Origin: Naegleria gruberi
Lineage: Eukaryota
DNA: 64,000 nt
Assembly: GCA_000004985.1 (NCBI GenBank)
Contig: GG738893.1
Strand: one strand, 5' to 3'
Shown: positions 14,423 through 64,000 of the stretch, piece by piece
Layout of the letters: each line of letters begins with the position of its first letter
Numbering within the stretch: position 1 is the stretch's first letter
Notes under the pieces: generated by a model
The model's input: only the letters and a program-made list of their open reading frames with translations
Databases searched by the model: none
Told to the model about the DNA's origin: nothing
Position numbers and translations under genes: made by a program

Positions 14423-16915
<2,493 letters not shown>

Positions 16916-17262: not shown

Positions 17263-18378
17263 TTACTTCTTATAGGTATCAACTTTCTTTGGTGGTTGAT
17301 AAACATCAACTTTGGAACAAACTCTTTCCTTCTTTGCGCAAATACTCTTATCAGCATGCTTTCTACAGACCTTCTTTCCACCAACAAAGTTATACTTGGC
17401 ACAGACCTTATAACCTTTAGATTTCTTAACACAAATCTTCTTATGAGATCTCTTGATACATCTTGCCTTCAAAGTCTTGTATTGAGTACAATATGGCTTG
17501 GCAGCATAATCACAACAGAACTTATCTTCTCTGAATGCCTTACAAACTCTAACCTTTTCTTTGAGATCACAGAATTTGCTTGGAGTCCACTTGGTACAGA
17601 ACTTGGCCTTTTCCTTCTTGATACAGAATTTGTTTCTAACAAATTTAACACACTTCTTTTCGTAACCAATCTTTTTGGCGAATTTGACATTTTCATATCT
17701 GGTACAGGTCTTTCTCTTGGCATAGGCAACACAAATGGTGTGATATTTCTTTTCCAAAATTTGCTTATAATAATGGTCAATCCAACCCTTATAATGTTTC
17801 TTACTAACTGGAACCCATTTTTGAACAGTTCTTGAGAGTTTCTTATACTTGGCACAATAGGAATGAACAGAATACTTGGCACATCTCTTCTTATGATAAT
17901 ACTTAATCTTTGGAACGTAGGTTTCTTCAACACATCTAGCCGAATGTCCATACTTTTTACAAATGAAATGATAAGCATACTCATCACATGCATTATTCTT
18001 TCCGTGATGTTTACACAATTCCTTCCATTCATACTTGGCACACATCTTGTGTTTAGTTACTTTAGTACAGAATTGTTTGTAACCATGACCCAAACAAATC
18101 TTTTCATTCTTACTATACTTATCACACTTGTGAAGTTTCTTATATTCTAAACATTTACCCTTTCCAACAAGTTTCCAATCGCAGCATTCCTTCTTGGTAC
18201 CAATCCATTCATAATCAACGCATTTACCTTGAATAGTTTTGTAATGAGTACACTTATTGTAACAATATTGTTGATGATCAGCGTAGGTATCAGTTGGCTT
18301 GTTACCCATGACAACAATGGCGGAGAGAGCAAGCAAAGTCAATCCGAGAAGGATTGGTTTGAGAATAGACTGTTTCAT
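17263..18378 (-). CDS. Secreted lysine/cysteine/tyrosine-rich repeat protein, 371 aa, with a signal peptide.
   Basis: N-terminal hydrophobic signal MKQSILKPILLGLTLLALSAIVVMG. The mature part is a tandem array of short C-x-K-Y/K-rich modules such as CAKYEWKELCKHHGKN and CVKFVRNKFCIKKEKAKFC. Codon bias is extreme (AAG, TGT, TAC, AAC, GGT). Confidence 0.6.
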   Translation of the reverse strand: MKQSILKPILLGLTLLALSAIVVMGNKPTDTYADHQQYCYNKCTHYKTIQGKCVDYEWIGTKKECCDWKLVGKGKCLEYKKLHKCDKYSKNEKICLGHGYKQFCTKVTKHKMCAKYEWKELCKHHGKNNACDEYAYHFICKKYGHSARCVEETYVPKIKYYHKKRCAKYSVHSYCAKYKKLSRTVQKWVPVSKKHYKGWIDHYYKQILEKKYHTICVAYAKRKTCTRYENVKFAKKIGYEKKCVKFVRNKFCIKKEKAKFCTKWTPSKFCDLKEKVRVCKAFREDKFCCDYAAKPYCTQYKTLKARCIKRSHKKICVKKSKGYKVCAKYNFVGGKKVCRKHADKSICAKKERVCSKVDVYQPPKKVDTYKK

Positions 18379-18589: not shown

Positions 18590-18790
18590 AATTTATTTGG
18601 AAAATGCATTGAATGAAACTTTACATTTTTGAAGATTTGGTTTCTAATGAGATGTTATTGTAATAAGAAATGTTTCGAGTAATTACATCTCATTAGAAAC
18701 CAAATACATTATCTAATGAGATGTTATTACTCTTATTGTAATAAATACTCGAATGAGATGTTATTACAATAAGAGTAATAAGAAATGTTT
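18590..18790. repeat. Nested inverted and direct repeat cluster (MITE-like or cis-regulatory module) immediately upstream of the 18822 gene.
   Basis: A perfect 19-bp inverted repeat TTGGTTTCTAATGAGATGT (18637-18655) / ACATCTCATTAGAAACCAA (18685-18703). Further TAATGAGATGTTATT copies lie at about 18712 and 18747. A direct repeat GTAATAAGAAATGTTTCGA occurs at about 18661 and 18772. An inverted pair TTACTCTTATTGTAATA / TATTACAATAAGAGTAA is also present. Confidence 0.55.
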
Positions 18791-18821
18791 CGAATGATTG
18801 TAAAGTTGAAACTTTAAAAAA

Positions 18822-20516
18822 ATGGAATCACCACTAAAGAAGAAGAAATTACATCATCACAATGATGAAGAAAATATTCAAATAATGAATGAACAAGATG
18901 ATGAAAATGTTAAAATAATATTATCAGATTCTTTATACGAAAGTAAACTATTCTCCAATTTACAAAATCAATTCGGAGGAAGAAAATTTAAAGAAATCCA
19001 ATCCGAACACACATATATTGATCACATTCGCTTCACACACGATGTTAAATGTATTCGAACTTGTCCAAAGAAGAAAAATTTACTCCTTCTCCACTATTCT
19101 AAAGAACTTTCCATTTATGATTTGGAAAGCAAACAAGAAATTAGAAACATTCACTTTAAAACAAGTGAAGATTTTGAAATTGATGATCAGGGAGATTTCA
19201 TCTATTACATTACTAAAGAAGATTATTTAACAAAATCTTCCTTATTAGACGAAAGAAGTAAATTAAACACAATTTGGGAAGAGAAGATTAATTATCAAAC
19301 TTTTATATTTTGTGAATCAAAGAATGAAATTTATGTAATTGATCATTTTAATACTGAATTTGTAATGATTCATGTATTGGATGTATCAAATGGGGAATTA
19401 ATTAGGGAAATTGTCTTTCCTATTATGAATTTGATTACTGAATGTGATGGTGGACATTTAACTCATGAAATTAATCAATTTTACTATGATGAAAATGGAG
19501 GAAGATTCTATCTAGCTTTTGAATCAGTTCTAGTTGATGATGAAGATTCAGACGATAAAACTATTCATTCTCTTTATGTATTTGAAGAAAAGATTGGTAA
19601 AACTAGTAAGATTCATATTAATTATTTAATTTCAATGATTGGAATTTTACAAGAGAACTATTTCTTTTGTTTAGATGAATGTAGAAATGTGCATATTTAT
19701 TCAAAGAATACAAATGAATTGAAAAATTCATTTACAATGAATAGTACTGCTCAATGTATTTATTTTGACATGTCAACCAATAGATTATTCCACAAAACAA
19801 CAAGATGTATTGAAATATTTCAATTAAATATTATAACAAAGAATGAGAGTTTTCCAATTAACAGAGAAATGTGTCAAGCTATCAAGAGATTGGGAGGCGA
19901 ATTTCCACAATATCTTTCACAACATCATCAAGTACCAAACACTGTAAATTTCTTGAGGAATATTAATTTCAGAAATACGATTTTGAAATTTGTTGACAAT
20001 GAAATTAAGGAACATTTCAGTTTAAAAGAATTACTATGTAATTCCAATATAGATAATGTGCCATGGGGATATTTAAAACAGCAAAAGTGTTGGTTATTTG
20101 TGATTTTTGAGGAGGTTTCGAATATCAATGACTTTCCAATTTACCTTTGCTCTAGTAAGGATCGACAAATACTGTCAAGAACATACACATTTTCAGAATT
20201 TCTCTCTAAATGTACACCAGTTGAACAAGTTTCAGTTTTAGAACAGGAATATCTCATTGATTTTCATAGTATCTATCAAAATTTATTACAAAAAGGTATC
20301 ATTCATCCACAAACACGTAAAATCGACCCTAACATTCTATTAGCCAAGTATAGAGAAATGGTTTGTAAAAATATTCACATAATCGAGTTGAGAAATCATT
20401 TTCAATACTCAACCATTAAATTGGAAAATACTGAATATACAAAGATGGATTTAATTGTGGCAGCTGAACGAATTTACTCTGATGCAACAATACCACAATC
20501 ATTTATTATTGAATAA
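18822..20516 (+). CDS. Hypothetical protein of 564 aa.
   Basis: Uninterrupted ORF starting in an AAAAAAATGG context. No family recognised. Confidence 0.5.
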   Translation: MESPLKKKKLHHHNDEENIQIMNEQDDENVKIILSDSLYESKLFSNLQNQFGGRKFKEIQSEHTYIDHIRFTHDVKCIRTCPKKKNLLLLHYSKELSIYDLESKQEIRNIHFKTSEDFEIDDQGDFIYYITKEDYLTKSSLLDERSKLNTIWEEKINYQTFIFCESKNEIYVIDHFNTEFVMIHVLDVSNGELIREIVFPIMNLITECDGGHLTHEINQFYYDENGGRFYLAFESVLVDDEDSDDKTIHSLYVFEEKIGKTSKIHINYLISMIGILQENYFFCLDECRNVHIYSKNTNELKNSFTMNSTAQCIYFDMSTNRLFHKTTRCIEIFQLNIITKNESFPINREMCQAIKRLGGEFPQYLSQHHQVPNTVNFLRNINFRNTILKFVDNEIKEHFSLKELLCNSNIDNVPWGYLKQQKCWLFVIFEEVSNINDFPIYLCSSKDRQILSRTYTFSEFLSKCTPVEQVSVLEQEYLIDFHSIYQNLLQKGIIHPQTRKIDPNILLAKYREMVCKNIHIIELRNHFQYSTIKLENTEYTKMDLIVAAERIYSDATIPQSFIIE

Positions 20517-48681: not shown

Positions 48682-50545
48682 ATGCATCAGCAGTCGAATA
48701 ACAACCATTCACAGCAGCCAACGATCAATCAAACAAGTGGCGGCTCTGGTCATCAACAAAATAAGAAGAAGAATAGATTTGAATCATCAGGTGGTCCTAG
48801 ATTTACAAATGTTGTAGTTACTACAAGTCCTGCTTTTTATTCATTAAATCATCCTTCAAATACTACATCATCATCATCCAATCAACAACAACAAGGAGTT
48901 GGTTCATCAAATGGAGGAAATTCCCTCATGATGACTGGTGGTAATTCTTCTGTTTTATCATCAAGTGGTTCCAATAATAATAATAGCAGCAATACAATGA
49001 ACAATAATCAACCTAAAAGCAAGCCTTATAAAAGTCTTGTCTCTAAACCCGTTGTTCAAATCAAAGGAACACCACAAATATTGGCAAAGAAACCAAGTAC
49101 AGCTGAATCATCATCAAATTTATCTAATAATAATACTATCAGCAACACTCCTGTTGGCAATACACCAAATCAACCTACTATACTACAAAAGAATCCATCA
49201 GAGCCTTCCTCTAGAAGAATTAATCAACATTTACAACCAGAAATTAGTCAAAACTTTACCAGTGGTTCATCACCAACTACTCTAAATACTGGTAGTTTAC
49301 CTCTTACAACTGTAAAATCATCATTGGATGAAAATATTAACAAGCAAGACTCTCCACAAACAACAAATGGTTCTTCTAATGTTGAAAAGAAGAAGGCTTC
49401 TATTGAAATGGTTCCATTGTCTTTTGATAAAAAGTGCTTGAATTTAATTCAAGAAAATTCATCTGGAATGTATAATACAATCCTTGAACTTCAATCAAAT
49501 CAAAACTTACAAGCCATGTCAAATTTATTTCCTAATGATAAGCAAGTTTCTACAGAAAGTAATAATTATTCTGTTATCGGAGTTATTGGAAAACAAGGAA
49601 GTGGAAAATCTAAAATTTTAAACTCATTGATTGGAAGTGGAGCTGAAATTTTCCCACAAGAAGATTTGGAATGTTTTTTGGATTGCAAATACAAAACTAG
49701 TGGTATTGATATCTATAGAACATCAGAACAACAAATCTTTATCGACACTCAACCATTATTTTCATCACAAATTCAACATTCCTTTAATGGAATGAGTATG
49801 AATTCTCTTATGAAACCATTTGAAACATCAGTTGAAGCTGTATCAATTGCTGCCTTGGAAAGTTTTATTGATATTACAAGTTTACAAATTGCATTGTTTG
49901 TATTTAGTGTTTGTCATGTTGTACTTGTAGTAGTTGATCATCAAGCAGATTCACTTGAACAATTTAAAATGTATCAATTCATTCAAACTATTAGAATGTT
50001 ACAACAAGGTGTTCCAACAATTTCACAATGTGGAAAGAGTTCTTCTCAACAAAAACCAACTCTAGAAGGTCATGTTCCAGAAGTTATTTTTGTTTACAAT
50101 AAGGTTAGCCCAACAGATATGAGTGAATTGAATATTAAACATACAGAAAGTTTATTGGAAAGCTACTTTACAAGTACAAGCTTTAGAAAGAATGGATTTA
50201 TTCATCCACATATGTGGCACCATCAATTTAAGAAGAATGACATTGTCAATTTCTTTATGATTCCAATGGAATCTTCAAAGGTACGAATTTTAACAATTGT
50301 GTTATTAATAATTCATCTCTCAATATTTCATTAATATTAAATTAATATAGATTAAGGATGAATACAAGGATTCTATCAATTTATTAAGAAAAGGAATTCA
50401 AAATATGCCAAAACCAAACTTGAAGAAAATGTCTCAAAATGAATGGTTTGGAAATTCTGTTAGAAACTTTGAAGTTATCAAAAAGAGTTACTTTTTACAA
50501 GAATATATTAGAAAGATTACAAGTAGCATGTCCATTCACAATTAG
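48682..50545 (+). CDS. P-loop NTPase-domain protein with a Q/N/S-rich N-terminal region (SMG9-like arrangement; family assignment tentative). Two exons, 48682..50280 and 50351..50545.
   Basis: Walker A VIGVIGKQGSGKSKILNSLIG. GTACGA donor at 50281 and ATATAG acceptor ending at 50350 (70-nt intron). The frame moves from 1 to 2. Confidence 0.45.
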
Positions 50546-50822
50546 GAAAACAATATTGATTTATTGAAAAAACAATTGAACACATTTGAGTATTACAAAA
50601 CATTTTGATTTTTGAAAATTGAAGAATTGAAAAATTCAACAAATTAAAATCACAATTTGAAACTCACAATTTATACATGTGAAGAATAAACATTTTATGG
50701 AAGAACCTAATTCATGTTTTTTCAAGTTGCATTGTCCATATCATTAAATGATACTAAAAAGGCATGAAAATATCAAATGACCTTTCGAATAAAAAATTAA
50801 GTGATTCTTTCATAATTGAAAT

Positions 50823-53131
50823 GTGATTCTACTTGAAAAAAAAATGTCATTTCATCACAACAATGATGGGAGAGATCCGACCAATCATCACCATCCAGAA
50901 AAACAAGAGCAACCAACATCAACATCATCATCATCTCGACTACGCCAAGAAATTCCATCACTAAACTTAACTGAAATTAATAATATTTTTCCAACAACAT
51001 TAACAACAATAACGGAAAACAGTACAATTCATCAATTATCAATAACAAGTTCTGACAATAACAGTTTTGAAGAACCATCAACATCAACTACAACATTAAA
51101 TAGTTGTTCTAATAATAATAATAATATTTCTAATAATAGTAATTCTGATAATAATAATGAAAATATAAATTATAAAGAATTATATGAAAAGGAAGTTGAA
51201 AAGAATAAATTATTAACAACTCAACTTGCTATAATAAATTTACAAAAACAAGATGAATTTGAAATTATTAAAATTATTGAAAATGAATTAAATGATAAAA
51301 TTAATTTAAATTTTATTAAATTTAAATTAAATCAATTAAAAAATTTAAATCAAGAACAAGTATTTACAAATGATTCAATTTTAAACGATTATTCTAAACA
51401 TGAATTAACTAAATTTGAAAATGAAATTTATAAATCTATTGATAAACATCCAATTATAGAAAAAATGACAAAATTAGAAAGTGAAATTAATTTTTTAAAA
51501 TATTCATTAAAATATTCAAATAATTGTTCATCATGTACTGAAAAACAAGAATATTCAGCTAAAATAATACAAAAAGCATTTCGTTCATTTCGTATAAGAA
51601 ATCGAATGAAAATAATTTTTCCCAAATATGACATTATTTCACAACGTAATTCACTAATTAGTGAAATAGTTCAAACAGAACAAACCTATGTTAAATCTTT
51701 AACACTAGTTCAAAGACTATATATAGATCCATTAAAAAATTCAGATTTAACAGATACAATGAGATTTAATTTAACAATTTCACAAATTCAAAAAATATTT
51801 AATAATTTATCAACAATTTTATCAATGCATCGAATTTTCTTGATAAATTTAGAACAAAAATTGAAAGAATGGCCAAATGTTTTTATTGGTGAAAGTTTTA
51901 TGAATCAATCTTTCTTTTTCCTTTTTTATGTTGAATATATAAATGGTTATAATGAATCTTCAAATACTTTGAGAGAATTGAGATTGAAAAATAGGGAATT
52001 TTTAACATTTTTAAATGAAACTAAAAAACATAAGGAATGTAAAGGTTTATCACTTGAATCTTTTTTAATTTTACCAATTCAAAGGTTTGTTTTTTTTTAA
52101 ATACTTTCATTACAATAATATTTAAATACTAACATTACAATAATATTACAATAATATTTAAATACTTTTATTACAATAATATTAAAATAGATTACCAAGA
52201 TATAAATTACTATTAAAAGGAGTATTGAAACATACATTACCTGATCATACAGATTATCAAAATTTAAAATCTGCCTATAATAGAATAAGTGCCATCAATA
52301 ATGCAATTAATTCTAAAAAGAAGGAACATGAAACTTATTTAATTATCAACAAAATGTTCAATGAAATGAAAATATTTTCAGTTCAACAAGATTATCATTT
52401 GTAAAGTATANNNNNNNNNNNNNNNNNNNNNNNNNNNNNNNNNNNNNNNNNNNNNNNNNNNNNNNNNNNNNNNNNNNNNNNNNNNNNNNNNNNNNNNNNN
52501 NNNNNNNNNNNNNNNNNNNNNNNNNNNNNNNNNNNNNNNNNNNNNNNNNNNNNNNNNNNNNNNNNNNNNNNNNNNNNNNNNNNNNNNNNNNNNNNNNNNN
52601 NNNNNNNNNNNNNNNNNNNNNNNNNNNNNNNNNNNNNNNNNNNNNNNNNNNNNNNNNNNNNNNNNNNNNNNNNNNNNNNNNNNNNNNNNNNNNNNNNNNN
52701 NNNNNNNNNNNNNNNNNNNNNNNNNNNNNNNNNNNNNNNNNNNTTATATTGAACAGGAGGGTGTTATTCATGCTTTATCATTTGAGAGAGAATCACCAAT
52801 TGCCAATACTCACATTGATTGGTCAAAGAAACTCTACAAACAACTTCATTTAACTAAGGAAGATGAACAAATTAATAATGTTAAACAATTTGAAATGAGA
52901 GAAATTTTGAGAATTTGTGATCAGGTATTTCACAAATTTAGTACAACCTCCTCATTGAACAAATTGGAATCAACAGTTTTTGAAGAACCTTCACCTAGAA
53001 ATTCAATGATGAAAACTCTTTCATTCCTCAAGAAATCACCTTCACTCACTGCTGTTAAACATACAGAAGATGAAGAACATGAAGTTAAGAAATTAATTGA
53101 TACCATACAAGTTAATACTGAACATTTTTAA
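50823..53131 (+). CDS. Rho guanine-nucleotide exchange factor (IQ motif + DH domain + probable PH domain). The gene spans the assembly gap and has at least one intron (about 52087..52198).
   Basis: The N-terminus is N/S-rich. The IQ-like motif is AKIIQKAFRSFRIRNRMK. The DH domain starts LISEIVQTEQTYVKSLTLVQRLYIDPL. The end of the DH domain continues after the intron as LPIQR|ITKIKLLLKGVLKHTLPDHTDYQNLKSAYNRI, the classic PRYxLLLKELLKHT. The downstream ORF after the gap (52744..53131) is in the same orientation. Confidence 0.6.
52391..52743. other. Assembly gap (353 N).
   Basis: Run of n characters. It interrupts the RhoGEF gene. Confidence 0.99.
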
Positions 53132-53231
53132 CTAATTCAATTGAATTAAAAGATTATTTAATAAAATAATTTTAAATTTATTTATTTCAAAAAAACATAA
53201 AATATTCTCAATATTCTCAATATTATTATTA

Positions 53232-55870
53232 TTAAATAGTCAATTTCATTTCATTAATTTCTTGTTCACGTTGTTCCTTCAAACCATGAATTGATTCCAA
53301 AGCAAAAGGTGGGAAATAAGCATAACTAAATTTATCTTGTAATTGATTATTAAAAATTGATAATTCCTCATCTTGACTATAAAAAGTGGAATGAATTAAT
53401 TGATTATTATTTGAATCTAATGGATTAAATTTAGTCTTGTAATGAATATTCCAATATAAAGCATAAACAATTGATAAAATTAATAATAAACACATTAAAA
53501 ATAAATGAATAAAAGTAACATCTCCTGATTTGGCAAAGAATAACATGACATAAAATTGAGCAAATATTATACAAAAGAATGTCATTTGTACAATTAATTT
53601 GTTACGTTCTCTATAGGAAGTAATATCAGGTGATAATTTGTAACGTGCTTTATCATTTTTAGAACATAATCTTGAAATATTATATCTATCAATTAAATGT
53701 TTTACAATAAAATAGAAAAATCCAATTGGTAAAATTAATGGAACAAAAACTGAAAATGTTAAAATAATTCCAAAGAATGCAATCATATAACCATATTCTA
53801 ATGGTAAATCAAATTCACTAATTTTAGTTGCATTTTCCTTTTCCTCTTCAGTTACACTTTTAAATCTCAAATAAAAATAAATAATTAAATCTTTTAATCT
53901 AATCATATCAACAAAACATCCTAATAAAGAATATTGAATTGTATAATTAATAAAGAATGCACCTGATTGTGGTAAAAATAAATAATCAAATAAAGCTTGC
54001 CAATTTGAATCACCTGATCCACTAACTGAATGACTAAATTGTTCAAAATATCTAATAACACCATCTAATGAAGTTAATAATAAAACTGGAAGTATTAATG
54101 TTGATAAAACAACATAAATAAATAATCTTAATAAATAAACACTTGATTCTTCTGAATAGGATTTATATTTTTCAAATCTAGTTAATAGTGGTATAATCAT
54201 TGGTAATAATTGTGCAATAATAAATAATAATAATGTTGGTAAATAGTGAAATAAAATATCACCTGTATATCCACTTGCTTCTTTAATTTGATTAAATGCT
54301 TTAGCTGCTTGTGGAATACGATTAGCAATTGATTGAATAGATGAAACAATTGCCAATGGACTTGTAAAAAATAATAAGAAAAATACTAATAGTAAATTTA
54401 CAATTGCAACTCTAAATGTTCTTTGATTTTTAGATAATGAAAAATTTGACCAATTTAAATCTTGTGGTTCAAATGTTTTCTTTTCAATACGAAATTCAAT
54501 TAAATCATTTGAATCATTTGAATCATTGATACAAGTAGTAGTAGTATATTAGTAGTAGGAGTAGTATTATCATTCATCATATTATTATTCAATTTAAATA
54601 ATTTTAAACCAGTTTCATCCATTGCTTTACATTTAGATGCATCTTGAATTGATTTAAAAATAACATGTCCATATCCAGTTGATTTTGGTTGATTTTTAAA
54701 AGTTTCTTCCCATTCCATAATTAAATGTTCTAATTTTACTTTCTTTTCATTCCAATAATTTAAAGCATCAACTCTTTCAATAATTTTAGAACAACATTTA
54801 CCTTTTTTGGATGATTCGAATAATTTAATTAATTTAACATGTTTGTTTGTTTGATTTTGAACATATTCATAATGTTTAATTTGTTCAATTGAATTTTCAA
54901 AAGATTCTTGTAATTCAATTCTTTCACTTGTATCATGAATTAAACGACATGAATAAATGTTTAAATTTGGAAATATAGATTCAACTGATTTTCTAAATTT
55001 AGTATTATCAGTAATTTGAATTGGAATATCTTTTAATAAAACACTATAATTACTAATCATATTTAAAGTACTATTTGAATCATTTTCAAATCCATCCATA
55101 TTTATATATTGATTAACAAATTTAGAATTAACAAATCTATACATTAAATAAAATATTAAAATTGAAAATAAATAAAATAAAATAACATGTGCATATAATC
55201 TATCTGTTAATGATAATACCATATTAACACTTGTCTTGTATAAAAATGAATCAGTTTCAATATTTGTACTATTTTGATTCTTTGAAATTACATTTAAATT
55301 ATTCATTGTATTAGAATTACTAATTTGTCCTGTTAAATGTAATGGTAATAATACTGATAATCCAATTAATGTAAATAATCCTGTAAATAATATCATTTGA
55401 TGTGAATACCATAAATAAACACTAACTTCATGTCCATACAATTTACCAATTCTTTCATATTCACTTTCAAATATTAAAAATTGATAAATTCTTTTAAAGA
55501 ATCTTTTAAATACATTTCTTTCATTCTTATCATCATTTATATTAGTATTACCACTTCCAATATTATTATTAGTATTATTAATATTAAAATTATTATTGGA
55601 TGATGATGATTTTTTACGTTTCCATAAACGTAAATTTCTCAAACAACAAAATAAAATCAACAAGCCTAAAACAAAAACACAACCATCAAGAATTAAAATA
55701 AAACTAACACCGGAATGATTAGTTTGTAATTGTAAAGCATAATTAGTTTCATTGATACTTGATGATGATGCTGATGCACCACCACCATCGGCACCAATGG
55801 CCAATAATGATGATGATAAAATACCACCGCCACCAACAGCTATTGGTGATGACGTCATTTTAATGATCAA
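53232..55870 (-). CDS. OSCA/TMEM63/CSC1-family mechanosensitive (calcium-permeable) channel. An apparent frameshift or short intron lies at about 54360-54560 inside an ACT/AAT repeat.
   Basis: 54500..55870 encodes N-terminal TM helices plus a cytosolic domain (YLWYSHQMILFTGLFTLIGLSVLLPL, RLYAHVILFYLF). 53232..54356 encodes the 7TM C-terminal block (RSN1_7TM-like: LLPMIIPLLTRFE, YLLRLFIYVVL, FFINYTIQYSLLGC). The two ORFs are collinear. Confidence 0.65.
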
Positions 55871-56934
55871 ATTTGTTGTGTCTAGTCTTCAAGTAATTAT
55901 ATTAGTGCAAACTTTAATGATGATCAAAAAAGCAGGCAGTGGAGAAGGAGGATCAGTTATATTACTACTGCTTCTTTGATTATTTTTTTGTTAATGATAT
56001 TGATGATTGTGGATGAATATGATAATTGCGTTTGTAATTTTTGAAATTAGTTTTTGAGAACTACAGTTTAGTTTCGAACTGTAGATGAAATTTTCGAATA
56101 ACTGTAGTTCAAATGTATAAAATTTCAAGTTACTACATGTTTTGTAAGAATGTAATGGACTCCATTCACTCAACCTGCAAAATCATAACCATTCTATAAA
56201 AGTACAAATTTAAGATTGTAGGCTCTCTATTGCAATGTTCTGCATTTCTACATTTTCATCCAATTAAATATCAAAAGACTCTAACGCATTCCATTGTCCG
56301 CTCAATTACTCCAACACTAACTATTGAGGACACCCCAAATATTCCCAATTTAGTAGAACTCTTTCTCCAGTAACAATGCAACATGATGAACTCAATTATT
56401 GTGCGTGATGATGTATTTTAAACATGTACTGTTTGTAGCATCAAGAGAGGAACATTGTTTCATATGAATGGACAACGGAATTGCATCATTATGAACCATC
56501 ATTATAAAATCTTTCCATCTTGCTGATTCGCAAAATATCTTAGTTATATCTTCTCAGTCACTATATTGATTACCAACATTAAAATTTTCCTTAAATATTT
56601 TCCATCTTGTTGTGGAGAGAAAGAGCGATGGGTGGTAGCTAGGCTTGGGTTGGTTGCATTGTTTTTTTGGCTATGTGTTGAGGATGGTTGAAAACGTAAC
56701 AAGCCTTGTTGAAAATCTTCAAAAAAAAAGAAACAACAACTACCCACTCACAACAATAGAGTTACTGCTATTGAACATAACCAGTTGCACTTTTGGTAAT
56801 TTTTTAAATCCTCATTTGTACATATTTACGAATAGACATATTGGGGAAGGACCATTTTGCATTTCACTTAGTAAATACAACAACACTGCAACACTAATTA
56901 TAATACATCTATATATTGAATATTTTGAATAAGA

Positions 56935-59315
56935 ATGAGAATATTATCGAGGTGGTCACCTTATTATTATCAATCAAATGATAAACCTAAATATAAAGTT
57001 AATGGACATTGGATGTTAATTAAAACAATAGTATTAATACTATTATCTATATCAATATATTATATTACAAAACATTTTATAATAGATTCAAATCAATCAA
57101 CAATTACTGGAAATACATTAACTACTGAAAACAATTATTATTCATCATTAACACATCATACACAATTTCATTCACAATATATGAATGAAACTATTACAGA
57201 AAATGAACCATCATCGAATGATAATACTAAAATTTGTAATTTAATTGCAAGTTATGAATTGGATCAATGTCAATTTGCTATGGATAATTGTAATGCACCA
57301 ATGGGTGGATTTTTAAATTATATTTTTATTAGATATTGTACTTTTAAACAGTTAGAACCTTTATTTTATATTTGTTCTTTATTTTGGGTTATTTTCTTAT
57401 TTTACATGTTAACATGTAAGTTTATATATATACTAGTATTTAAATTGAGTATTTTATGTTAAATATTATTGGAATTACTATATATATAGCAACTGCTGAG
57501 GATTTCTTTTGTCCAAGTTTAGCTGAAATTTCAAGAATATTAAGATTACCACCAGATGTTGCTGGTGTTACTTTCCTAGCCTTGGGAAATTCATCACCAG
57601 GTATGTTTTTAATTAATACTATTAATAACTTTACACTTAATGATTTAACTATTATTAAATATATAGATATATTTTCTATATTAGCAGGTATATTTTCTGG
57701 ATCATCTGGATTTGGATTAGGTGAACCAATTGGAAGTGGATTTGTTTGTGTTTCAGTTTTAATTGCAATTGTTTCATTTGTAGTTAAAGATGCAACAGTT
57801 TCAGCATTTCCATTTTTGAGAGATGTTATTACTTATTTAATTGGTGTTTTATTTGTATTTTTAATTGTTATATTTCAGGGTTCAATTAATTTATGGCAAA
57901 GTATTACATTTCTAGTTATTTACTTTTTATATGTTTCATTTGTAATTGGTTGTAAATTTTACAATGATTACAAAAATAGAAAGAAGAAAAATCAACAAGA
58001 AGATCAACAAGATAAAGATGATGCAAACGAGGAAGAAGAAGAATCTAATTCAAGTGGATGGTTAGAAGGAAAGAAACCAATATTACAATGTAAGAATATT
58101 GATGAAATTCCTGAAAATGTTAAAAAACAATTGAAATCCAAATTGTTTTATGGAGCTGTTTATAATCCTAAATTTGGAGTTGCTTATTTATCTAATGAAC
58201 CTATTAATACTATTCCAAAAGGATGTTGTACTGAAAGGACACCTCTCAATAGAAAATCATCTTTACAAGAAGAAGATAATTCTATTAATAATATTGAAAT
58301 GAATGGATCAATTATCATTGAAAATCACTTTACAATTAATACATCATCAAATGATAATCAAGATTTGATTCACTGTCATGAACATGATCATCATCATTTC
58401 AGATTTTCATCATTTAAAGAAATAATTTCAACTAAATATCAAGAATTTATTGAATGGATTGAGTGGAATGAAAAATCCAAATTAGATAAGATATTCTTTA
58501 TAATAGAAGCACCTTCAATTCTAGCTAGAAATTTAACAATTCCAAAGGCAGATCCAAATGATTGGAGTAAATTATTTGCCATTCTATGTCCAATATTCAT
58601 TCCACCATTTACTTTATTTACAATTGGATATATTTCATTGAATATTCCAGGTAGTGAATTTCCAATTTGGGTATTAGGATCAATGTGTGGTTTATTCATT
58701 TCAATTTTAATTCATTTTACATCAAAGAAATGTAGAAAACCATTTTATCACATAATATTTGTAATTAGTTCATTCATCATGTCAATTTTATGGATTTTTA
58801 CAATTGCCAATGAATTGGTGAATGTTTTAAATTCATTTGGTATTTTATGGAGTATTAGTGATTCTGTATTATCTATTGTTTTATCAATTGGTAATACCTT
58901 CTCAGATATGGCTGCTGATTTGGCTGGTATGTTTATTTTTTTTAATACTTTTTTAACATGTTTACAATATTTTACAATATTTAACAATACTATTTAAATA
59001 GTTGCAAGACAAGGTTATGTTGAAATGGCAGTTGCTGCTGCATATGCAGCACAAGGAATGAGTTTATTAATTGGATTAGGTATTGCTACAACTGCTAATT
59101 TTGTCATGACTCGTAAACCATTTGAAATTGAATTTTCACCAACTTTAATTGTTACTTTTATATTTTTATTGGCAACTTTAATTTCATCTTTAATTGTTAT
59201 TCCAATTGCCAAATTTAAAGCTCCTAAAATATTTGGATTATTTTTATTGACTATATATCTTGTATATTTGGTTATTACAATATTAATTGAATTTAAAATT
59301 TTATTAAATCATTAA
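56935..59315 (+). CDS. Cation/Ca2+ exchanger of the CaCA superfamily (CCX/NCLX/NCKX-like), with at least 4 exons.
   Basis: Alpha-1 repeat GVTFLALGNSSP after a 70-nt intron (57423..57492). A second intron lies at 57600..57684. Alpha-2 repeat SIVLSIGNTFSDMAADLA, then the intron 58925..59005 (GTATGT...AATAG). The final exon has the terminal TM helices and ends at 59315. Confidence 0.65.
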
Positions 59316-59366
59316 AATTTAATTTATTTTTATTTATTTATTAATTTAAATTGTTTTTATTTTACA

Positions 59367-60806
59367 TTAAATTGAACATTTTCTTGAAATGACATGAGTT
59401 TGACATGTTGAAACAATTTTTGAAATCCAATTATTAACTCTCTCCTTATTATTACCCCAATCAGAATAACCATATTTACACCTACTATAAATAGCAATTG
59501 TACTTTTTTGAATTGAAGATTGAACTGATAATAATTGAATTGTAATATAATCAGGATATTCTTGAAATTTTGTTTTTTGTAAAAAAGTAAATAAATTAAT
59601 ATCATCATTTCTGCATAACATTTCAACACCTTCCTCATATGGTAATACTTCTGATAATAAAATTTCTTTTAATTCTAAAATGGAAATACTATTAAAAATA
59701 GGTGAAAATTGTTCTCTAATTGGAACATTACATTGAAATAATTGTACAGTATTATTTGATTGTTGGACAATAAATGAATCTATATTTGGATAAATTAAAT
59801 ACCAATTTGGTGAATTTGTTACTTTTAATTCATTAAAATGTAAAATATTAAAATTAGAAAATTGATAAAATAATAAATTAACATTTTTAAAACAATGTTC
59901 TTTACAAACATGATTAAATTTTCCAATGGTTAATAAAAATTGACCTAAATGTAATGCTAATTTAGCAATTGGAATATCATTTAAATTACTAAATTTGGAA
60001 AGTAATATTTCTTGTAAAAGTAAAAATGCTTCCTGCCCATCGAAACATTGTTCAAATACATAATTTTTACAAGTCTTATTTTGTAATTTAATTCCTTGTT
60101 TAAAATATTGATAAATATTTTCTACATCTTGATTTGAAAATTTTTTAAAAATTACATTATTACTTATATAGTCATTTCCAAATTCATGAATAAATTTATA
60201 ATCACTATTTGGACATCTTTGTAATAATATTGATTGTTCAGTACATTGTAATTTACTATATTTATGTGGACTTGAATTTCCAATTATGGAATTATTATTT
60301 ATATTATTATTAGAATTATTAATAGGAGTCATACAGGATTGACAAGATTGATTATTTTGAGATTGTACAAGTTGTGAAAGAGAAGGAAAAGCATTTGGAT
60401 CACTTAATATAGTATTTAGTGTTGGATTATTAGAAATTAAATTTCCATTATTAGTAATTGTATTATTATTATTAGATTGTTTCAAATAAGATTGATGATA
60501 CTGTTGTTGTTGTTGCTGAGATTGAAATTGATTACCAATCAATGCATAATATCCACTATTATTACAACAAGTATTTTCAGAATTATTACTACTTGTGGAT
60601 GTTCCACCAGTAGTACTTGAAATATTACTACCACTACTATTACTAATATTACAATTATTGTTAGGAGTACCACCAGTACTAGATAACATTAATTGTTGTT
60701 GCTGTTGTTGTTGTTGATGTAAATAGATTTGTTGTTGCTGTTGTTGTTGTTGAGTAAGCATAATAGGTTGATTCTTTTTGAGTTGGTAAAATGTCTGAAT
60801 TGACAC
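59367..60806 (-). CDS. DEP-domain protein with a poly-Q/N-rich N-terminus, 479 aa.
   Basis: DEP-like segment FSNQDVENIYQYFKQGIKLQNKTCKNYVFEQCFDGQEAFLLLQEIL. The N-terminal third is Q8/N-rich low complexity. Confidence 0.5.
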   Translation of the reverse strand: MSIQTFYQLKKNQPIMLTQQQQQQQQIYLHQQQQQQQQLMLSSTGGTPNNNCNISNSSGSNISSTTGGTSTSSNNSENTCCNNSGYYALIGNQFQSQQQQQQYHQSYLKQSNNNNTITNNGNLISNNPTLNTILSDPNAFPSLSQLVQSQNNQSCQSCMTPINNSNNNINNNSIIGNSSPHKYSKLQCTEQSILLQRCPNSDYKFIHEFGNDYISNNVIFKKFSNQDVENIYQYFKQGIKLQNKTCKNYVFEQCFDGQEAFLLLQEILLSKFSNLNDIPIAKLALHLGQFLLTIGKFNHVCKEHCFKNVNLLFYQFSNFNILHFNELKVTNSPNWYLIYPNIDSFIVQQSNNTVQLFQCNVPIREQFSPIFNSISILELKEILLSEVLPYEEGVEMLCRNDDINLFTFLQKTKFQEYPDYITIQLLSVQSSIQKSTIAIYSRCKYGYSDWGNNKERVNNWISKIVSTCQTHVISRKCSI

Positions 60807-61225
60807 ATGAGAGAGTGTAATGCGGTCAAATTTAATGTTTTGGAGGAGGAATTACTTAACGAATCGCCGATTAATATTATATTGGATTTGTTGTCACAGC
60901 TGTGGTATTGATGATAGAGTTCAAATATTTGGATATTTCAATCCTTTCGTCGGGAATATAACCTTATTACAACTCTTTTTATTGTTGACTATGTCTTTCG
61001 TTGTGATGATGATACTTAATGAGGGAGGAGGAGATACAGAGGTGGTAGTGGTGATAATCGAATGGTTAAATGAGTTCAGAGTTTGTGTGGACATGATCAA
61101 AACCTTAATCGGCGATCATCAAAAGGCGAAAAACATGTTGATGATTTAAACATTCTCCACTACCTCCTTCTTCTTTCCAATAAATTTATTTTCCAATATA
61201 AATGTAATAACACAGACATTAAATC

Positions 61226-61546
61226 TTATTCTTCATCATTGGAAATGGATGGAACTCTTGGAGTCTTTTTAATGATAACTTTTGGTATTTGTTTCTTTTC
61301 CATTCCAAGTAATTCTCTAACAATTTTAAATCTAATTAAAAAGTAATGAAGTAAAATGTACCATCCTCCAACAATAACTACTAATGATGCTAATAACATG
61401 AATAATCTATATAATATTGGATGATTATTTGTATCATTTTGTTCCGATGGTGATGGCGTTGAACCCATAACAACATTCATTATCATCACCAACATCATTA
61501 TAAATACTAATATTTGTGATGTTCCTTTCAAGAATAGTTTGATCAT
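61226..61546 (-). CDS. Small two-TM membrane protein of 106 aa (hypothetical).
   Basis: Two hydrophobic helices (ILVFIMMLVMIMNVVMG and LFMLLASLVVIVGGWYILL) followed by a basic tail. Confidence 0.3.
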   Translation of the reverse strand: MIKLFLKGTSQILVFIMMLVMIMNVVMGSTPSPSEQNDTNNHPILYRLFMLLASLVVIVGGWYILLHYFLIRFKIVRELLGMEKKQIPKVIIKKTPRVPSISNDEE

Positions 61547-61726
61547 TTTTTTAAAGGCTTTGAACGTGTTGCTTTGATTGTTGGTGAAGACTTGTCATTG
61601 GAATTGCACGTTTTTAGAATAACAGTAACAATACAAAAAATTAATAATTTATAATTAGATTAGGTTTTTTCATACTCATTCAAAGTATGATATTTACATT
61701 GATTAGAGAGAGAGAGAGGGATTTTG

Positions 61727-62025
61727 TTATTTTTGTTCTTTTGCTTGTTTGGCAGCAATCTTTTGTTGGAGTTTTTGGGCATCTCTTTCTTTACGTTGGA
61801 GAGGAGTTAAACCATCTTCATCTCTTCCCTTTTCCTTTTGTTTTCTGGATTGAGCACGTTGACGGTCAATATCACGTTGATTACCACCTTTAAATTTTAA
61901 TTACCATTTGATGATCATGTTGATGTTATATATTTGTTGTTAGTATCGATAAGTTGTTGTTGTGTTGGTAAGTTGTGTTATGAATGTCGGTATTGTGGTG
62001 CATGAACTCGAAACTTACGAGACAT
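61727..62025 (-). CDS. SERF: SERF/4F5-family small EDRK-rich protein, 56 aa. Two exons, 62025..62019 (ATGTCTC) and 61887..61727, with a 131-nt intron.
   Basis: The spliced product is MSRGNQRDIDRQRAQSRKQKEKGRDEDGLTPLQRKERDAQKLQQKIAAKQAKEQK, matching the SERF N-terminal MxRGNQR(D/E)LxRQ consensus. The donor is GTAAGT directly after ATGTCTC and the acceptor is TTTAAAG. Confidence 0.65.
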
Positions 62026-62192
62026 GATGAGTGAGGTGTTGTTGTTTTATTTTTTATTAAATTTATTTCCATTACAAAAAGGCTGACGAACTACAATCGC
62101 ACTTGGTAATCATTTCTCAAACGAGACCTGTAAATTCATCAATCTTGTTTAGGGTAAAGGTACTAATTCATGAATTCTTTGAATATGAAAAT

Positions 62193-63991
62193 TTATTTTT
62201 GATAAATTAAAGTTCTAATAGTACGTGGTGGAACATCAATTTGAGCATGATATAAATGATTATCCTGATCAATTAAATTGAAAGATAAAATACTTTCTTG
62301 TTGATTTTGAACAATGGTAATAATCTTATTATCAGGTGTTTGGAATGAAGTAATTAAAGTTTGATCATTTACAGGTCTAAACATGTGAATTCTCTTTGAA
62401 TCTTGTGTTAAATATTTAGAGAAATGACCCATAAAATAATAAGTTGGTTGAATGTGAATTTCCTGAGTTCTATTATCAGCAATAATAGGAGCATCACACC
62501 AATTTTGTAAATGATTTGGACCACCTTGCCAATCTAAAATACAATTCCAATCAGTCCATCCACTTGCATAATTATTTAAATCATTAATAATATCAAATCC
62601 ATATTTTTCACCACGTGTCCAATTACCCAATGAAACACCAGGTCCCCAACATGCTTCAGTTGCTAATAAGAATTTTTCTTTATCAACTTGATGAGCACGT
62701 GATAGATTTTCATATTCACCATCAACATACCAATGGAATGCCATACCATCTACATATTTACTTGCTTCTGGATCTGAATAAATTGTTGATGCCCATTTTT
62801 CAACAGAATCTCTATTATGATCAAATATCATGATTTTCAAATTTGGATGATCTCTTCTCATTCTAGGTCCTAAATGATTTTTAATAAAATCTCTTTGATA
62901 TTCAGGTGTATAACAACAAGCATCCCATGGTCTATTTTTAATAAATATATTATTGAAAATTAAATATTATTGTAATTGAATATTATTAAATATTTAATAA
63001 ATATATTATTGTAATTAAATATTATTAAATATTATAAAAAAAATACATACGCAGCAAATTCAGGTTCATTTTGAATAGTTAAACCCCAAATTCTATCAAT
63101 ACCTTCATTTTGATAGGCAGTAACAAATTTAGAAAAGTGCAATGCCCATGAATCTAAAATATTTGTAGCATTAATTAAACCATTTGGTTGATTTGAACCA
63201 TTCATTTCATGATTATATTTCATCCTATATATATATTTATTTTAATATATTAAAATAATTAAATAAATAAATAAAATATTAAAATAAATAAATTAAATAA
63301 AATATTAAAATATTAAATATTAAATAAATATTGAAACATACCAAGCAGGTGGAGACCAAGGTGATAAAAATATTTTAAAAGATTCACCATTTTTAGGATA
63401 ATTTAATTTAACTTGATTTAAAACTCTTTTAATTAAAGGTAAAGTAAATATTTTATCTCTTCTAATATTAAAATTAGTTAATTGATAATCATTTTCAACA
63501 TCATCACAACTATAATTATCTAAACTAAAATCACATGAATTCATATGAATTCTAGCAGTAGTATAATTTAATCCTTTAGAAGTCCAATATAAACTTAGAA
63601 TTTCATTTCTAATTTGTTCATTCATTGTTGCAAATGTAAATGCAGAGGCTTCAGTTAAAGCACAACCAAATCCAATAATTGATTGATATTTAATAGATGA
63701 ATCTAATTTAAATGTTTTTAAATTTGGTTTAATATTACTATTAGGAATCCATTGAATTGGTTGATTTAATAATTTTAATCTATCACCTGTATATAATGAT
63801 GATTGTACAACTGAAATACTTGAAATTATTTTACCATTCATATTAATACTATTAATTTTATTATTATTATTATTAATAGTAATACTACTATGAATAGTAC
63901 TAATTAAATAACTCAACACTACTAATAAAACAATCATCACATTCTTAGAATGAAGATGAAGTTTGTTACCATGTTGTGGTTGTTGTTGCAT
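62193..63991 (-). CDS. Glycoside hydrolase family 30 (glucosylceramidase-like) protein, secreted, with at least 3 exons. Introns lie at about 63224..63330 and 62935..63050.
   Basis: Signal peptide with N-rich linker, then GFGCALTEASAF, LSPWSPPAWY and TIQNEPEF (the NEP acid/base motif). The C-terminal beta-sandwich region is present. The introns are almost pure A/T with GTATGT/GTAAGT-type donors. Confidence 0.7.
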
Positions 63992-64000
63992 TTTTTAAAA

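Follow-up and report, generated by a model that had tools for sequence, protein, structure and literature searches.

Nine-residue cysteine periodicity and mirror-symmetric halves in a family of putatively secreted, lysine-rich Naegleria proteins

What kind of protein is encoded by the short gene that lies on the minus strand at positions 17,263-18,378 of a 64,000-nucleotide stretch of Naegleria gruberi DNA (contig GG738893.1; the whole stretch is hereafter the window)? An original prediction, made from the DNA letters, had described the product as a very basic secreted protein of unknown family that is rich in lysine, cysteine and tyrosine. The open reading frame (ORF) is a real gene, and its product matches NAEGRDRAFT_71888 (XP_002673141.1; D2VSC2) of N. 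gruberi at 371 of 371 residues, a database entry labelled ‘predicted protein’ and nothing more. The window, at least around this gene, therefore belongs to N. gruberi NEG-M. We find that the protein is one of a coherent family in which at least three subfamilies are conserved, and that the protein's chief feature, absent from the original prediction, is a strict nine-residue period of cysteines combined with mirror symmetry between its two halves. Our best explanation of the whole, to which we give a probability of roughly 0.4, is that the protein would form a disulfide-laddered hairpin rod serving as extracellular structural material.

Cysteines exactly nine residues apart occur as 17 pairs in NAEGRDRAFT_71888, against 2.8 ± 1.5 (maximum 10) in 20,000 shuffles, and the nonapeptide module has the consensus C-x-K-[YFW]-x-K-x-K-[FI]. 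The original prediction had described about 25 modules of the form C-x(2-4)-K-Y/K; short modules of cysteine, lysine and tyrosine are indeed present, but the cysteines number 32, the period is strictly nine residues and the consensus is a different one. The cysteines are arranged about a mirror axis at residue 196, with positions that sum to 392 (66/326, 76/316, 85/307, 95/297, 104/288, 113/279, 122/270, 131/261, 140/252 and 149/243) or to 391 (166/225, 175/216 and 53/338). Read from the centre outward, the gaps between cysteines are 9, 17, six of 9, 10, 9, 10, 13, 10 and 4 in the N-terminal arm, and 9, 18, six of 9, 10, 9, 10, 12, 9 and 7 in the C-terminal arm. The symmetry of a perfectly periodic array is trivial, but in this protein the mirroring extends to the irregular gaps: when the order of the gaps is shuffled, 6.2 exact mirror pairs are expected against the 10 observed (P = 0.0024), and the same procedure gives P = 0.001, 0.0006, 0.03 and 0.03 in four other members and 0.08 in NAEGRDRAFT_66117. 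The best direct offset between the halves is never significant (P = 0.1-0.8), which rules out a tandem duplication of two halves, and an inverted duplication of the DNA is rejected as the cause because it is unable to yield a mirrored protein pattern. Selection acting on two antiparallel, paired arms can produce such a pattern.

Differences among the subfamilies fall at mirrored places as well. In three members of subfamily B (NAEGRDRAFT_66117, C9374_009239 and P0008), two intervals of 9 residues that are exact mirror partners have grown, that between cysteines 140 and 149 to 15-17 residues and that between 243 and 252 to 21, with insertions on both arms that are rich in proline and in D-x-Y motifs. 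Subfamily B likewise carries a cysteine inside both the 17- and the 18-residue gap where subfamily A has one in neither, and the extra cysteines found at 182/184 and at 208/212 in the tip region of paralogues are either both present (subfamilies A' and B) or both absent (subfamily A). A distant relative, P0021, contains 17 consecutive cysteine pairs counted from the outside in, with sums of 327-332, and lacks CC doublets in its outer part. In subfamily A, mirror pairing leaves over C65 and C289, which both belong to CC doublets and are separated by about 38 residues on the proposed rod; cysteine counts are odd in subfamilies A' and B (35 and 37), and the position of the CC doublet varies among subfamilies. 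A spare thiol beside a rung is therefore a recurrent feature of the family, which suggests bonds between molecules.

The gene and the parts of its product, all on the minus strand, are as follows.

17263..18378, minus strand: intronless, complete coding sequence of NAEGRDRAFT_71888, 371 codons, with a TAA stop at 17263-17265, taken from the ORF list and the identity given above.
18304..18378, minus strand: predicted signal peptide, residues 1-25, consisting of MKQSILK, the core PILLGLTLLALSAIVVM and a probable cleavage site between VMG and NKP, called from the sequence and its homologues.
18265..18303, minus strand: N-terminal tail, residues 26-38, with one KPTDTY motif (a D-x-Y motif) whose D30 and Y32 are nearly invariant.
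17854..18264, minus strand: N-terminal arm of the proposed ladder, residues 39-175, with 16 cysteines in units of C-x-K-Y-x-x-x-x-x; the rung cysteines are invariant in 10 of 10 homologues.
17734..17853, minus strand: tip region, residues 176-215, between C175 and C216, with conserved W188, V191, G198, D201 and Y203.
17317..17733, minus strand: C-terminal arm of the proposed ladder, residues 216-354, with 16 cysteines in units of C-x-K-x-x-x-K-K-F, its gaps mirroring those of the N-terminal arm.
17266..17316, minus strand: C-terminal tail, residues 355-371, ‘SKVDVYQPPKKVDTYKK’, with two copies of (K)VD(T/V)Y(K/Q)PPK.

The signal peptide recognized in the original prediction fits the N-terminal layout well: a hydrophobic core of 17 residues would lie between MKQSILK and the cleavage site, and all homologues share the same n/h/c arrangement, ending in VMA or VLA before N or in VSA before D. 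AlphaFold2 (AF2) models the segment as a helix spanning residues 6-24. A second hydrophobic segment is absent beyond it. The protein contains 22.4% lysine, 8.6% tyrosine and 8.6% cysteine (32 residues) with a lysine-to-arginine ratio of 83:12, and the description of it as very basic is borne out by an isoelectric point of about 9.7 and a net charge of +64 on the mature chain of 346 residues, in which no N-glycosylation sequons occur. The signal peptide, the lack of any other hydrophobic segment and the 32 conserved cysteines together argue for an extracellular, oxidising destination.

The D-x-Y motifs lie mostly outside the regular nine-residue ladder. NAEGRDRAFT_71888 has them in the N-terminal KPTDTY, in the two C-terminal VD(V/T)Y(Q/K)PPK copies and at the tip (D201-H-Y), as well as in two ladder units (D86-K-Y and D132-E-Y); subfamily B has them also in the internal insertions and tip loop, and subfamily C at the N-terminus and tip. 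Among homologues the (K)VD(T/V)Y(K/Q)PPK tail motif is present in about one to five copies or not at all, with four copies in NAEGRDRAFT_74241 and none in P0021. An in-silico trypsin digest of NAEGRDRAFT_71888 yields only 11 peptides of at least 7 residues, so standard proteomics could easily miss the protein and its absence from a proteome would be uninformative.

Is this a single oddity or a family? A word index, a profile search and an exhaustive hidden Markov model (HMM) search of 1.84 billion cluster representatives returned only 21 matches, namely paralogues in three Naegleria species and a few environmental sequences. All named members are Naegleria proteins and the environmental relatives come from unidentified organisms; neither the word-index and exhaustive profile searches nor a metagenome scan found relatives outside Naegleria-like sequences. 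N. gruberi encodes at least seven paralogues (NAEGRDRAFT_71888, 74241, 64508, 48501, 66117, 67458 and the probably mis-fused model 76199), N. fowleri encodes FDP41_004030 and FDP41_003065, and N. lovaniensis encodes C9374_012983/013759, C9374_000273 and C9374_009239. Across these three species the paralogues are collinear with NAEGRDRAFT_71888 over its full length at 49-89% identity, and within residues 60-335 the seven A/A' proteins (55-89% identity) show no insertion or deletion at all. Naegleria species have no fewer than three subfamilies (A/A', B and C) in common, and the paralogues are therefore old. Two gene models of the family look like annotation errors: NAEGRDRAFT_76199 (P0028) joins SAM and PB1 domains to the C-terminal arm of the ladder, and NAEGRDRAFT_48501 (P0011) lacks ‘GYKQ’ at an intron position.

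The most distant relative, P0021/P0037, is 29% identical and collinear along the whole ladder, which in this case forms the C-terminal domain of a secreted protein of 713-742 residues. It has far fewer lysines and no tail repeats, so the conserved entity is the cysteine framework and not the charge; net charge ranges from +64 to +88 in Naegleria members and is +30 in distant homologues. Residues 1-375 of P0021/P0037, upstream of the ladder, consist of modules of about 45 residues with the pattern ‘CP.G.K...C..C’ and no Pfam match, a further uncharacterised cysteine-rich repeat joined to the ladder's open end. Two weak matches, P0035 and P0036, contain low-complexity repeats of the ‘HQFCGALTP’ type and were judged spurious. 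P0031, a protein of 2774 residues from ENA without a Pfam domain, carries many nonapeptide repeats of the form ‘SSTCFDYATLxAC / SSFITSSTC’; it was rejected as a relative because it has only the period of one cysteine per nine residues in common and is otherwise unrelated in sequence, and the nine-residue cysteine period may be a more general structural solution.

In Joint Genome Institute (JGI) metagenome Ga0115593, four gene-sized contigs of 1.0-1.3 kilobases from one sample (L001-L004) encode relatives. In the three that we checked (L002-L004), full-length subfamily A' proteins are encoded without interruption, whereas A'-type reads (P0009, P0010 and P0012) appear to contain an intron downstream of LCLGHG, the point at which NAEGRDRAFT_48501 lacks ‘GYKQ’. 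The contigs thus probably represent transcripts from an environmental Naegleria.

Searches for a known domain or fold agree with the original prediction that there is none to recognise. Against Pfam-A, hmmscan at E <= 10 returned only DUF3624 (E = 0.14, 13.1 bits against a cut-off of 27), and the homologues P0018, P0021 and P0029 likewise had no Pfam matches, so that no confident match to a cysteine-rich family, whether EGF-like, granulin, follistatin/Kazal, chitin-binding or other, was obtained from Pfam. The PDB contained no sequence match at E <= 10, and Foldseek, queried with the AF2 model, returned only long beta-hairpins, none of them significant. The granulin motif has 12 cysteines with four CC doublets (C-x5-6-C-x5-CC-x8-CC-x6-CC-x5-CC-x4-C-x5-6-C); NAEGRDRAFT_71888 has two CC doublets among its 32 cysteines and is dominated by a single cysteine every nine residues.

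What fold could give rise to mirrored cysteines? With the signal peptide removed, the mature chain would fold back near residue 196 and bring the N-terminal arm (C39-C175) antiparallel to the C-terminal arm (C216-C354). Each cysteine would then bond its mirror partner (C175-C216, C166-C225, C149-C243 and so on to C66-C326, C53-C338, C43-C347 and C39-C354), giving about 15 disulfide rungs, one per nine residues, in a stiff, strongly cationic two-stranded beta-ribbon that at full extension would measure about 50 nm. The D-x-Y and ‘VDTYKPPK’ motifs of the N- and C-terminal tails would meet at the open end of this hairpin, and one or two extra cysteines of the CC doublets would stay free for intermolecular bonds. 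We infer this topology and disulfide map from the symmetry together with structure prediction. AF2, run on NAEGRDRAFT_71888 with a 10-sequence alignment, predicted uninterrupted strands at 92-194 and 200-303 around a turn at 195-199, with outer strand breaks that are all mirrored (mean predicted local distance difference test score (pLDDT) 66, strands and core 70-87; predicted template-modelling score (pTM) 0.21). For P0018, a subfamily B member with 41% identity, the predicted strands at 172-210/239-278 and 90-154/302-366 have their breaks at the tip loop and the pair of mirrored insertions. The topology of a giant two-stranded hairpin is thus reproduced by the models in two paralogues, at modest confidence, and a peak at 2.0 residues in the periodicity of lysine and arginine supports beta-strand character.

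Several observations weigh against this reading. Only one of five AF2 models was usable for NAEGRDRAFT_71888, and for P0018 one of five was reasonable (mean pLDDT 55, pTM about 0.2); the alignment used comprised just 10 sequences. In the NAEGRDRAFT_71888 model the strand pairs sum to 394-395 and not to 392, so that mirror cysteines do not face one another; register 394 is also where hydrophobic matches across the strands reach their maximum, and a test for charge or aromatic complementarity across the strands at register 392 gave no signal. In our view AF2 probably began zipping the chain at the conserved YKGW turn and left out a bulge that is needed near the tip. In a flat ribbon, an odd spacing of nine residues makes rungs alternate between hydrogen-bonded and non-hydrogen-bonded sites, and cross-strand disulfides normally occur at non-hydrogen-bonded sites only. 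Rungs every nine residues would accordingly need bulges, strong twist or a non-canonical conformation, although by our reasoning a two-stranded ribbon twisting by about 180 degrees per nine residues would make this period a natural one. The symmetry itself fits an antiparallel dimer equally well, and also fits a domain-swapped polymer. In subfamily C (NAEGRDRAFT_67458) the mirror symmetry is not significant (P = 0.40), the P values of the other members come from homologous proteins and are not independent tests, and the correlated changes in cysteines and insertions on the two arms amount to only three or four events.

Some of these difficulties would be met if the same protein adopted another fold with its halves unpaired, either a beta-solenoid with 18 residues per coil and disulfides bracing its core or a string of local C-x8-C loops. 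Disulfide-braced solenoids have just such a strict short period with one cysteine per unit, and the Tenebrio molitor antifreeze protein, a disulfide-braced beta-helix of 12-residue repeats, illustrates how a very short cysteine repeat can give a regular all-beta rod; the odd spacing that is awkward for a flat ladder, the AF2 register that fails to set mirror cysteines opposite each other and the modest AF2 confidence point the same way. Such folds leave unexplained, however, why irregular gaps (10-9-10, 12/13 and 17/18; P about 0.001-0.002) are mirrored and why insertions and cysteine gains fall at mirrored places on both arms, and if pairing were sequential, a cysteine gained on each arm, at sites over 60 residues from each other, would change the partner of every cysteine lying between. 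AF2 never produced a solenoid in either run. We therefore regard these other folds as unlikely and consider arm-to-arm pairing the best-supported topology, at slightly better than even odds. A different departure from the hairpin, in which the chain is a precursor cleaved at many dibasic sites into short bioactive peptides, appears extremely improbable: KK, KR and RK pairs are frequent, and the release of several pore-forming peptides from a single precursor is known in Naegleria, but the units are not near-identical copies, spacers and peptides do not visibly alternate, and the long-range mirror pattern and invariant length argue for a single folded entity.

Is the protein abundant? The original prediction called it highly expressed-looking, with the window's strongest codon bias (AAG, TGT, TAC, AAC and GGT) at a level comparable to CDC48. 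The effective number of codons is 31.3 for NAEGRDRAFT_71888 and 28.9 for CDC48, and GC content at third codon positions (GC3) is 0.37, the top value in the window. AAG (57/83), TTC (8/10), GGT (10/15) and TGT (28/32) are favoured, but TAC (7/32) and AAC (3/8) are minority codons, and GAA, GAT and CAT are the prevailing codons of their families. The similarity to CDC48 and the preference for AAG, GGT and TGT thus stand, whereas this ORF does not have the strongest bias in the window and the original list of five codons is wrong in two cases; the bias is real for lysine, phenylalanine and glycine codons but was overstated. Codon bias near that of CDC48 nonetheless supports abundance.

What, then, might the protein do? 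Our best guess, held at a little under even odds, is that it serves in bulk as structural material outside the cell, in the cyst wall or a surface matrix. The rods would be secreted in bulk and built into insoluble extracellular material, most likely the cyst wall by analogy and otherwise a surface or matrix layer, where they would be held in place by lysine charge, intermolecular disulfides and possibly tyrosine/lysine cross-links at the tail motifs. This guess draws on the features of a secreted protein with a disulfide framework, rigid length and membership of a multigene family with conserved subfamilies; on spare thiols, codon bias and variable tail copies that resemble tyrosine/lysine cross-linking motifs; and on the precedent of wall proteins in other protists that have regularly spaced cysteines or tyrosine cross-links (PMC4514997). 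The apicomplexan oocyst wall proteins COWP, TgOWP and EnOWP form secreted multigene families whose regularly spaced, conserved cysteines are thought to make stabilising disulfides, and Eimeria GAM proteins are dityrosine cross-linked (PMC4514997). The Naegleria family resembles the former as a multigene family, predicted to be secreted, with regular conserved cysteines, and differs in that they are not lysine-rich and have no reported mirror symmetry, while its own wall location is putative. NAEGRDRAFT_71888 has one cysteine per nine residues and no six-cysteine super-repeat, there were no apicomplexan proteins among the 21 profile matches, and Pfam and HMM searches gave no similarity to COWP. 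Two points count against the assignment: analogy is the whole of the case for the cyst wall, and a search of the literature and its supplements with locus tags, UniProt and RefSeq accessions found no mention of a family member and no expression, localisation or biochemical data. One text match to ‘D2VSC2’ proved to come from an unrelated paper on pine.

The charge of these proteins allows another role to be imagined, that of a cationic effector that kills or binds bacteria. As an outsized version of the disulfide-stapled beta-hairpin peptides, it would be delivered to phagosomes or secreted onto prey bacteria, and would bind and disrupt anionic envelopes with its charge of about +64. Naegleria is a bacterivore, net charges of +64 to +88 run through its members, the codon bias is compatible with high expression, and the predicted structure is a disulfide-stapled hairpin; cationic disulfide-cyclised hairpins are moreover an established antimicrobial class (PMC13001179). 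The ‘cystine ladder’ of protegrin, tachyplesin and theta-defensin is a strongly positive antiparallel hairpin with cross-strand disulfide rungs, as modelled for the Naegleria protein (PMC13001179). Peptides of this class, however, have 11-25 residues and 1-4 disulfides and are enriched in arginine over lysine (PMC13001179), whereas the Naegleria protein has 346 residues, about 15 proposed rungs nine residues apart, a lysine-to-arginine ratio of 7:1 (83 to 12) and no sequence relationship to them. Its disulfides and side chains switch faces with each unit, leaving no amphipathic segregation; its rigid length and variable D-x-Y/KPP tail copies look structural and not lytic; and the much lower charge of the distant homologues indicates that charge is not the conserved feature. 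We consider such an effector decidedly unlikely. Less probable still, and in our view very unlikely, is a surface adhesive or coacervate in which rods rich in lysine, tyrosine and cysteine, with mussel-foot-like K-P-P-Y tails, would glue the amoeba or cyst to substrates. The composition (22% lysine, 9% tyrosine, 9% cysteine) and tandem ‘VDTYKPPK’ tails recall the decapeptides of mussel mfp-1, the composition of mfp-6 and the plant PPVYK proline-rich proteins, and the richness in lysine and tyrosine, with or without cysteine, extends the likeness to extensins and Eimeria GAM, as does the placing of tandem K-P-P/tyrosine motifs in flexible tails, as in tyrosine-cured proteins. The resemblance is compositional, however, with no homology to the mussel, plant or Eimeria proteins and no support for 3,4-dihydroxyphenylalanine (DOPA), dityrosine or hydroxyproline; most of the Naegleria protein consists of its cysteine ladder, a feature that those proteins do not have, and the tails are a small part of it and absent from P0021.

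The surroundings of the gene add some observations. NAEGRDRAFT_71888 lies between CDC48 (14438-16915, plus strand) and an ORF of 564 residues (18822-20516, plus strand). The overlapping ORFs at 17296-17835 (plus strand) and 17469-18041 (minus strand), which the original prediction read as mirror ORFs reflecting internal repetition, do exist in the ORF list, but a search for a DNA-level tandem repeat in the gene found none. They are therefore by-products of a stop-poor codon composition, and we reject them both as genes and as signatures of repetition. The same negative result rules out recent repeat expansion as the origin of the periodicity; the period is thus an old one that has been maintained at the level of the protein. 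In the divergent intergenic region between NAEGRDRAFT_71888 and the ORF at 18822-20516, positions 18635-18800 contain four copies of AATGAGATGTTATTAC, one of them inverted (0.17 expected by chance), within nested inverted repeats of up to 31 nucleotides; the motif has no further occurrence in the window, and the cluster may represent a promoter element, or else a small foldback insertion resembling a miniature inverted-repeat transposable element (MITE). Farther along, GC content falls sharply to 0.16-0.26 at 50400-64000, against about 0.31 upstream, and ORFs there have a GC3 of 0.07-0.13, against 0.20-0.37 elsewhere, with stretches rich in poly-Q/N at their starts. The genes of this segment are ordinary eukaryotic ones (a RhoGEF, an intron-split RSN1/OSCA-type channel, a Na/Ca exchanger, a DEP protein and a GH30 glycosidase in two ORFs), and the segment represents either a compositional domain rich in AT or a join introduced by assembly or concatenation.

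NAEGRDRAFT_71888 was already in the databases as an uncharacterised entry; what is new here is the nonapeptide period, the mirror symmetry, the correlated changes among subfamilies and the hairpin model. In principle the protein resembles stapled cationic hairpins and periodic-cysteine wall proteins, while its scale differs and its mirrored nonapeptide design is unique, and the modelled hairpin rod has no solved counterpart in shape. At its most ambitious, the proposal is of a new architecture, a continuous beta-ribbon of about 150 residue pairs with about 15 rungs at nine-residue spacing, forming a polycationic rod of about 50 nm that may be a major and so far unnoticed part of the structure of the cyst wall or surface in Naegleria. 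Cross-linking or adhesive motifs would sit at its open end and, in paralogues, also in internal loops and at the tip, and the ladder would be an autonomous domain, as the C-terminal domain of P0021 suggests. We hold this larger proposal to be possible but somewhat doubtful. If the disulfide ladder is real, it would represent a new route to a long, rigid extracellular rod from a simple nonapeptide code, of interest to structural biology and protein design. The literature that we searched contains no Naegleria cyst-wall proteome, and the make-up of the cyst wall appears essentially undescribed. The brain-eating amoeba N. fowleri also has conserved members of the family, which are predicted to be secreted. 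If family members prove to be components of the cyst wall or surface, they would be candidates for a Naegleria-specific marker or target.

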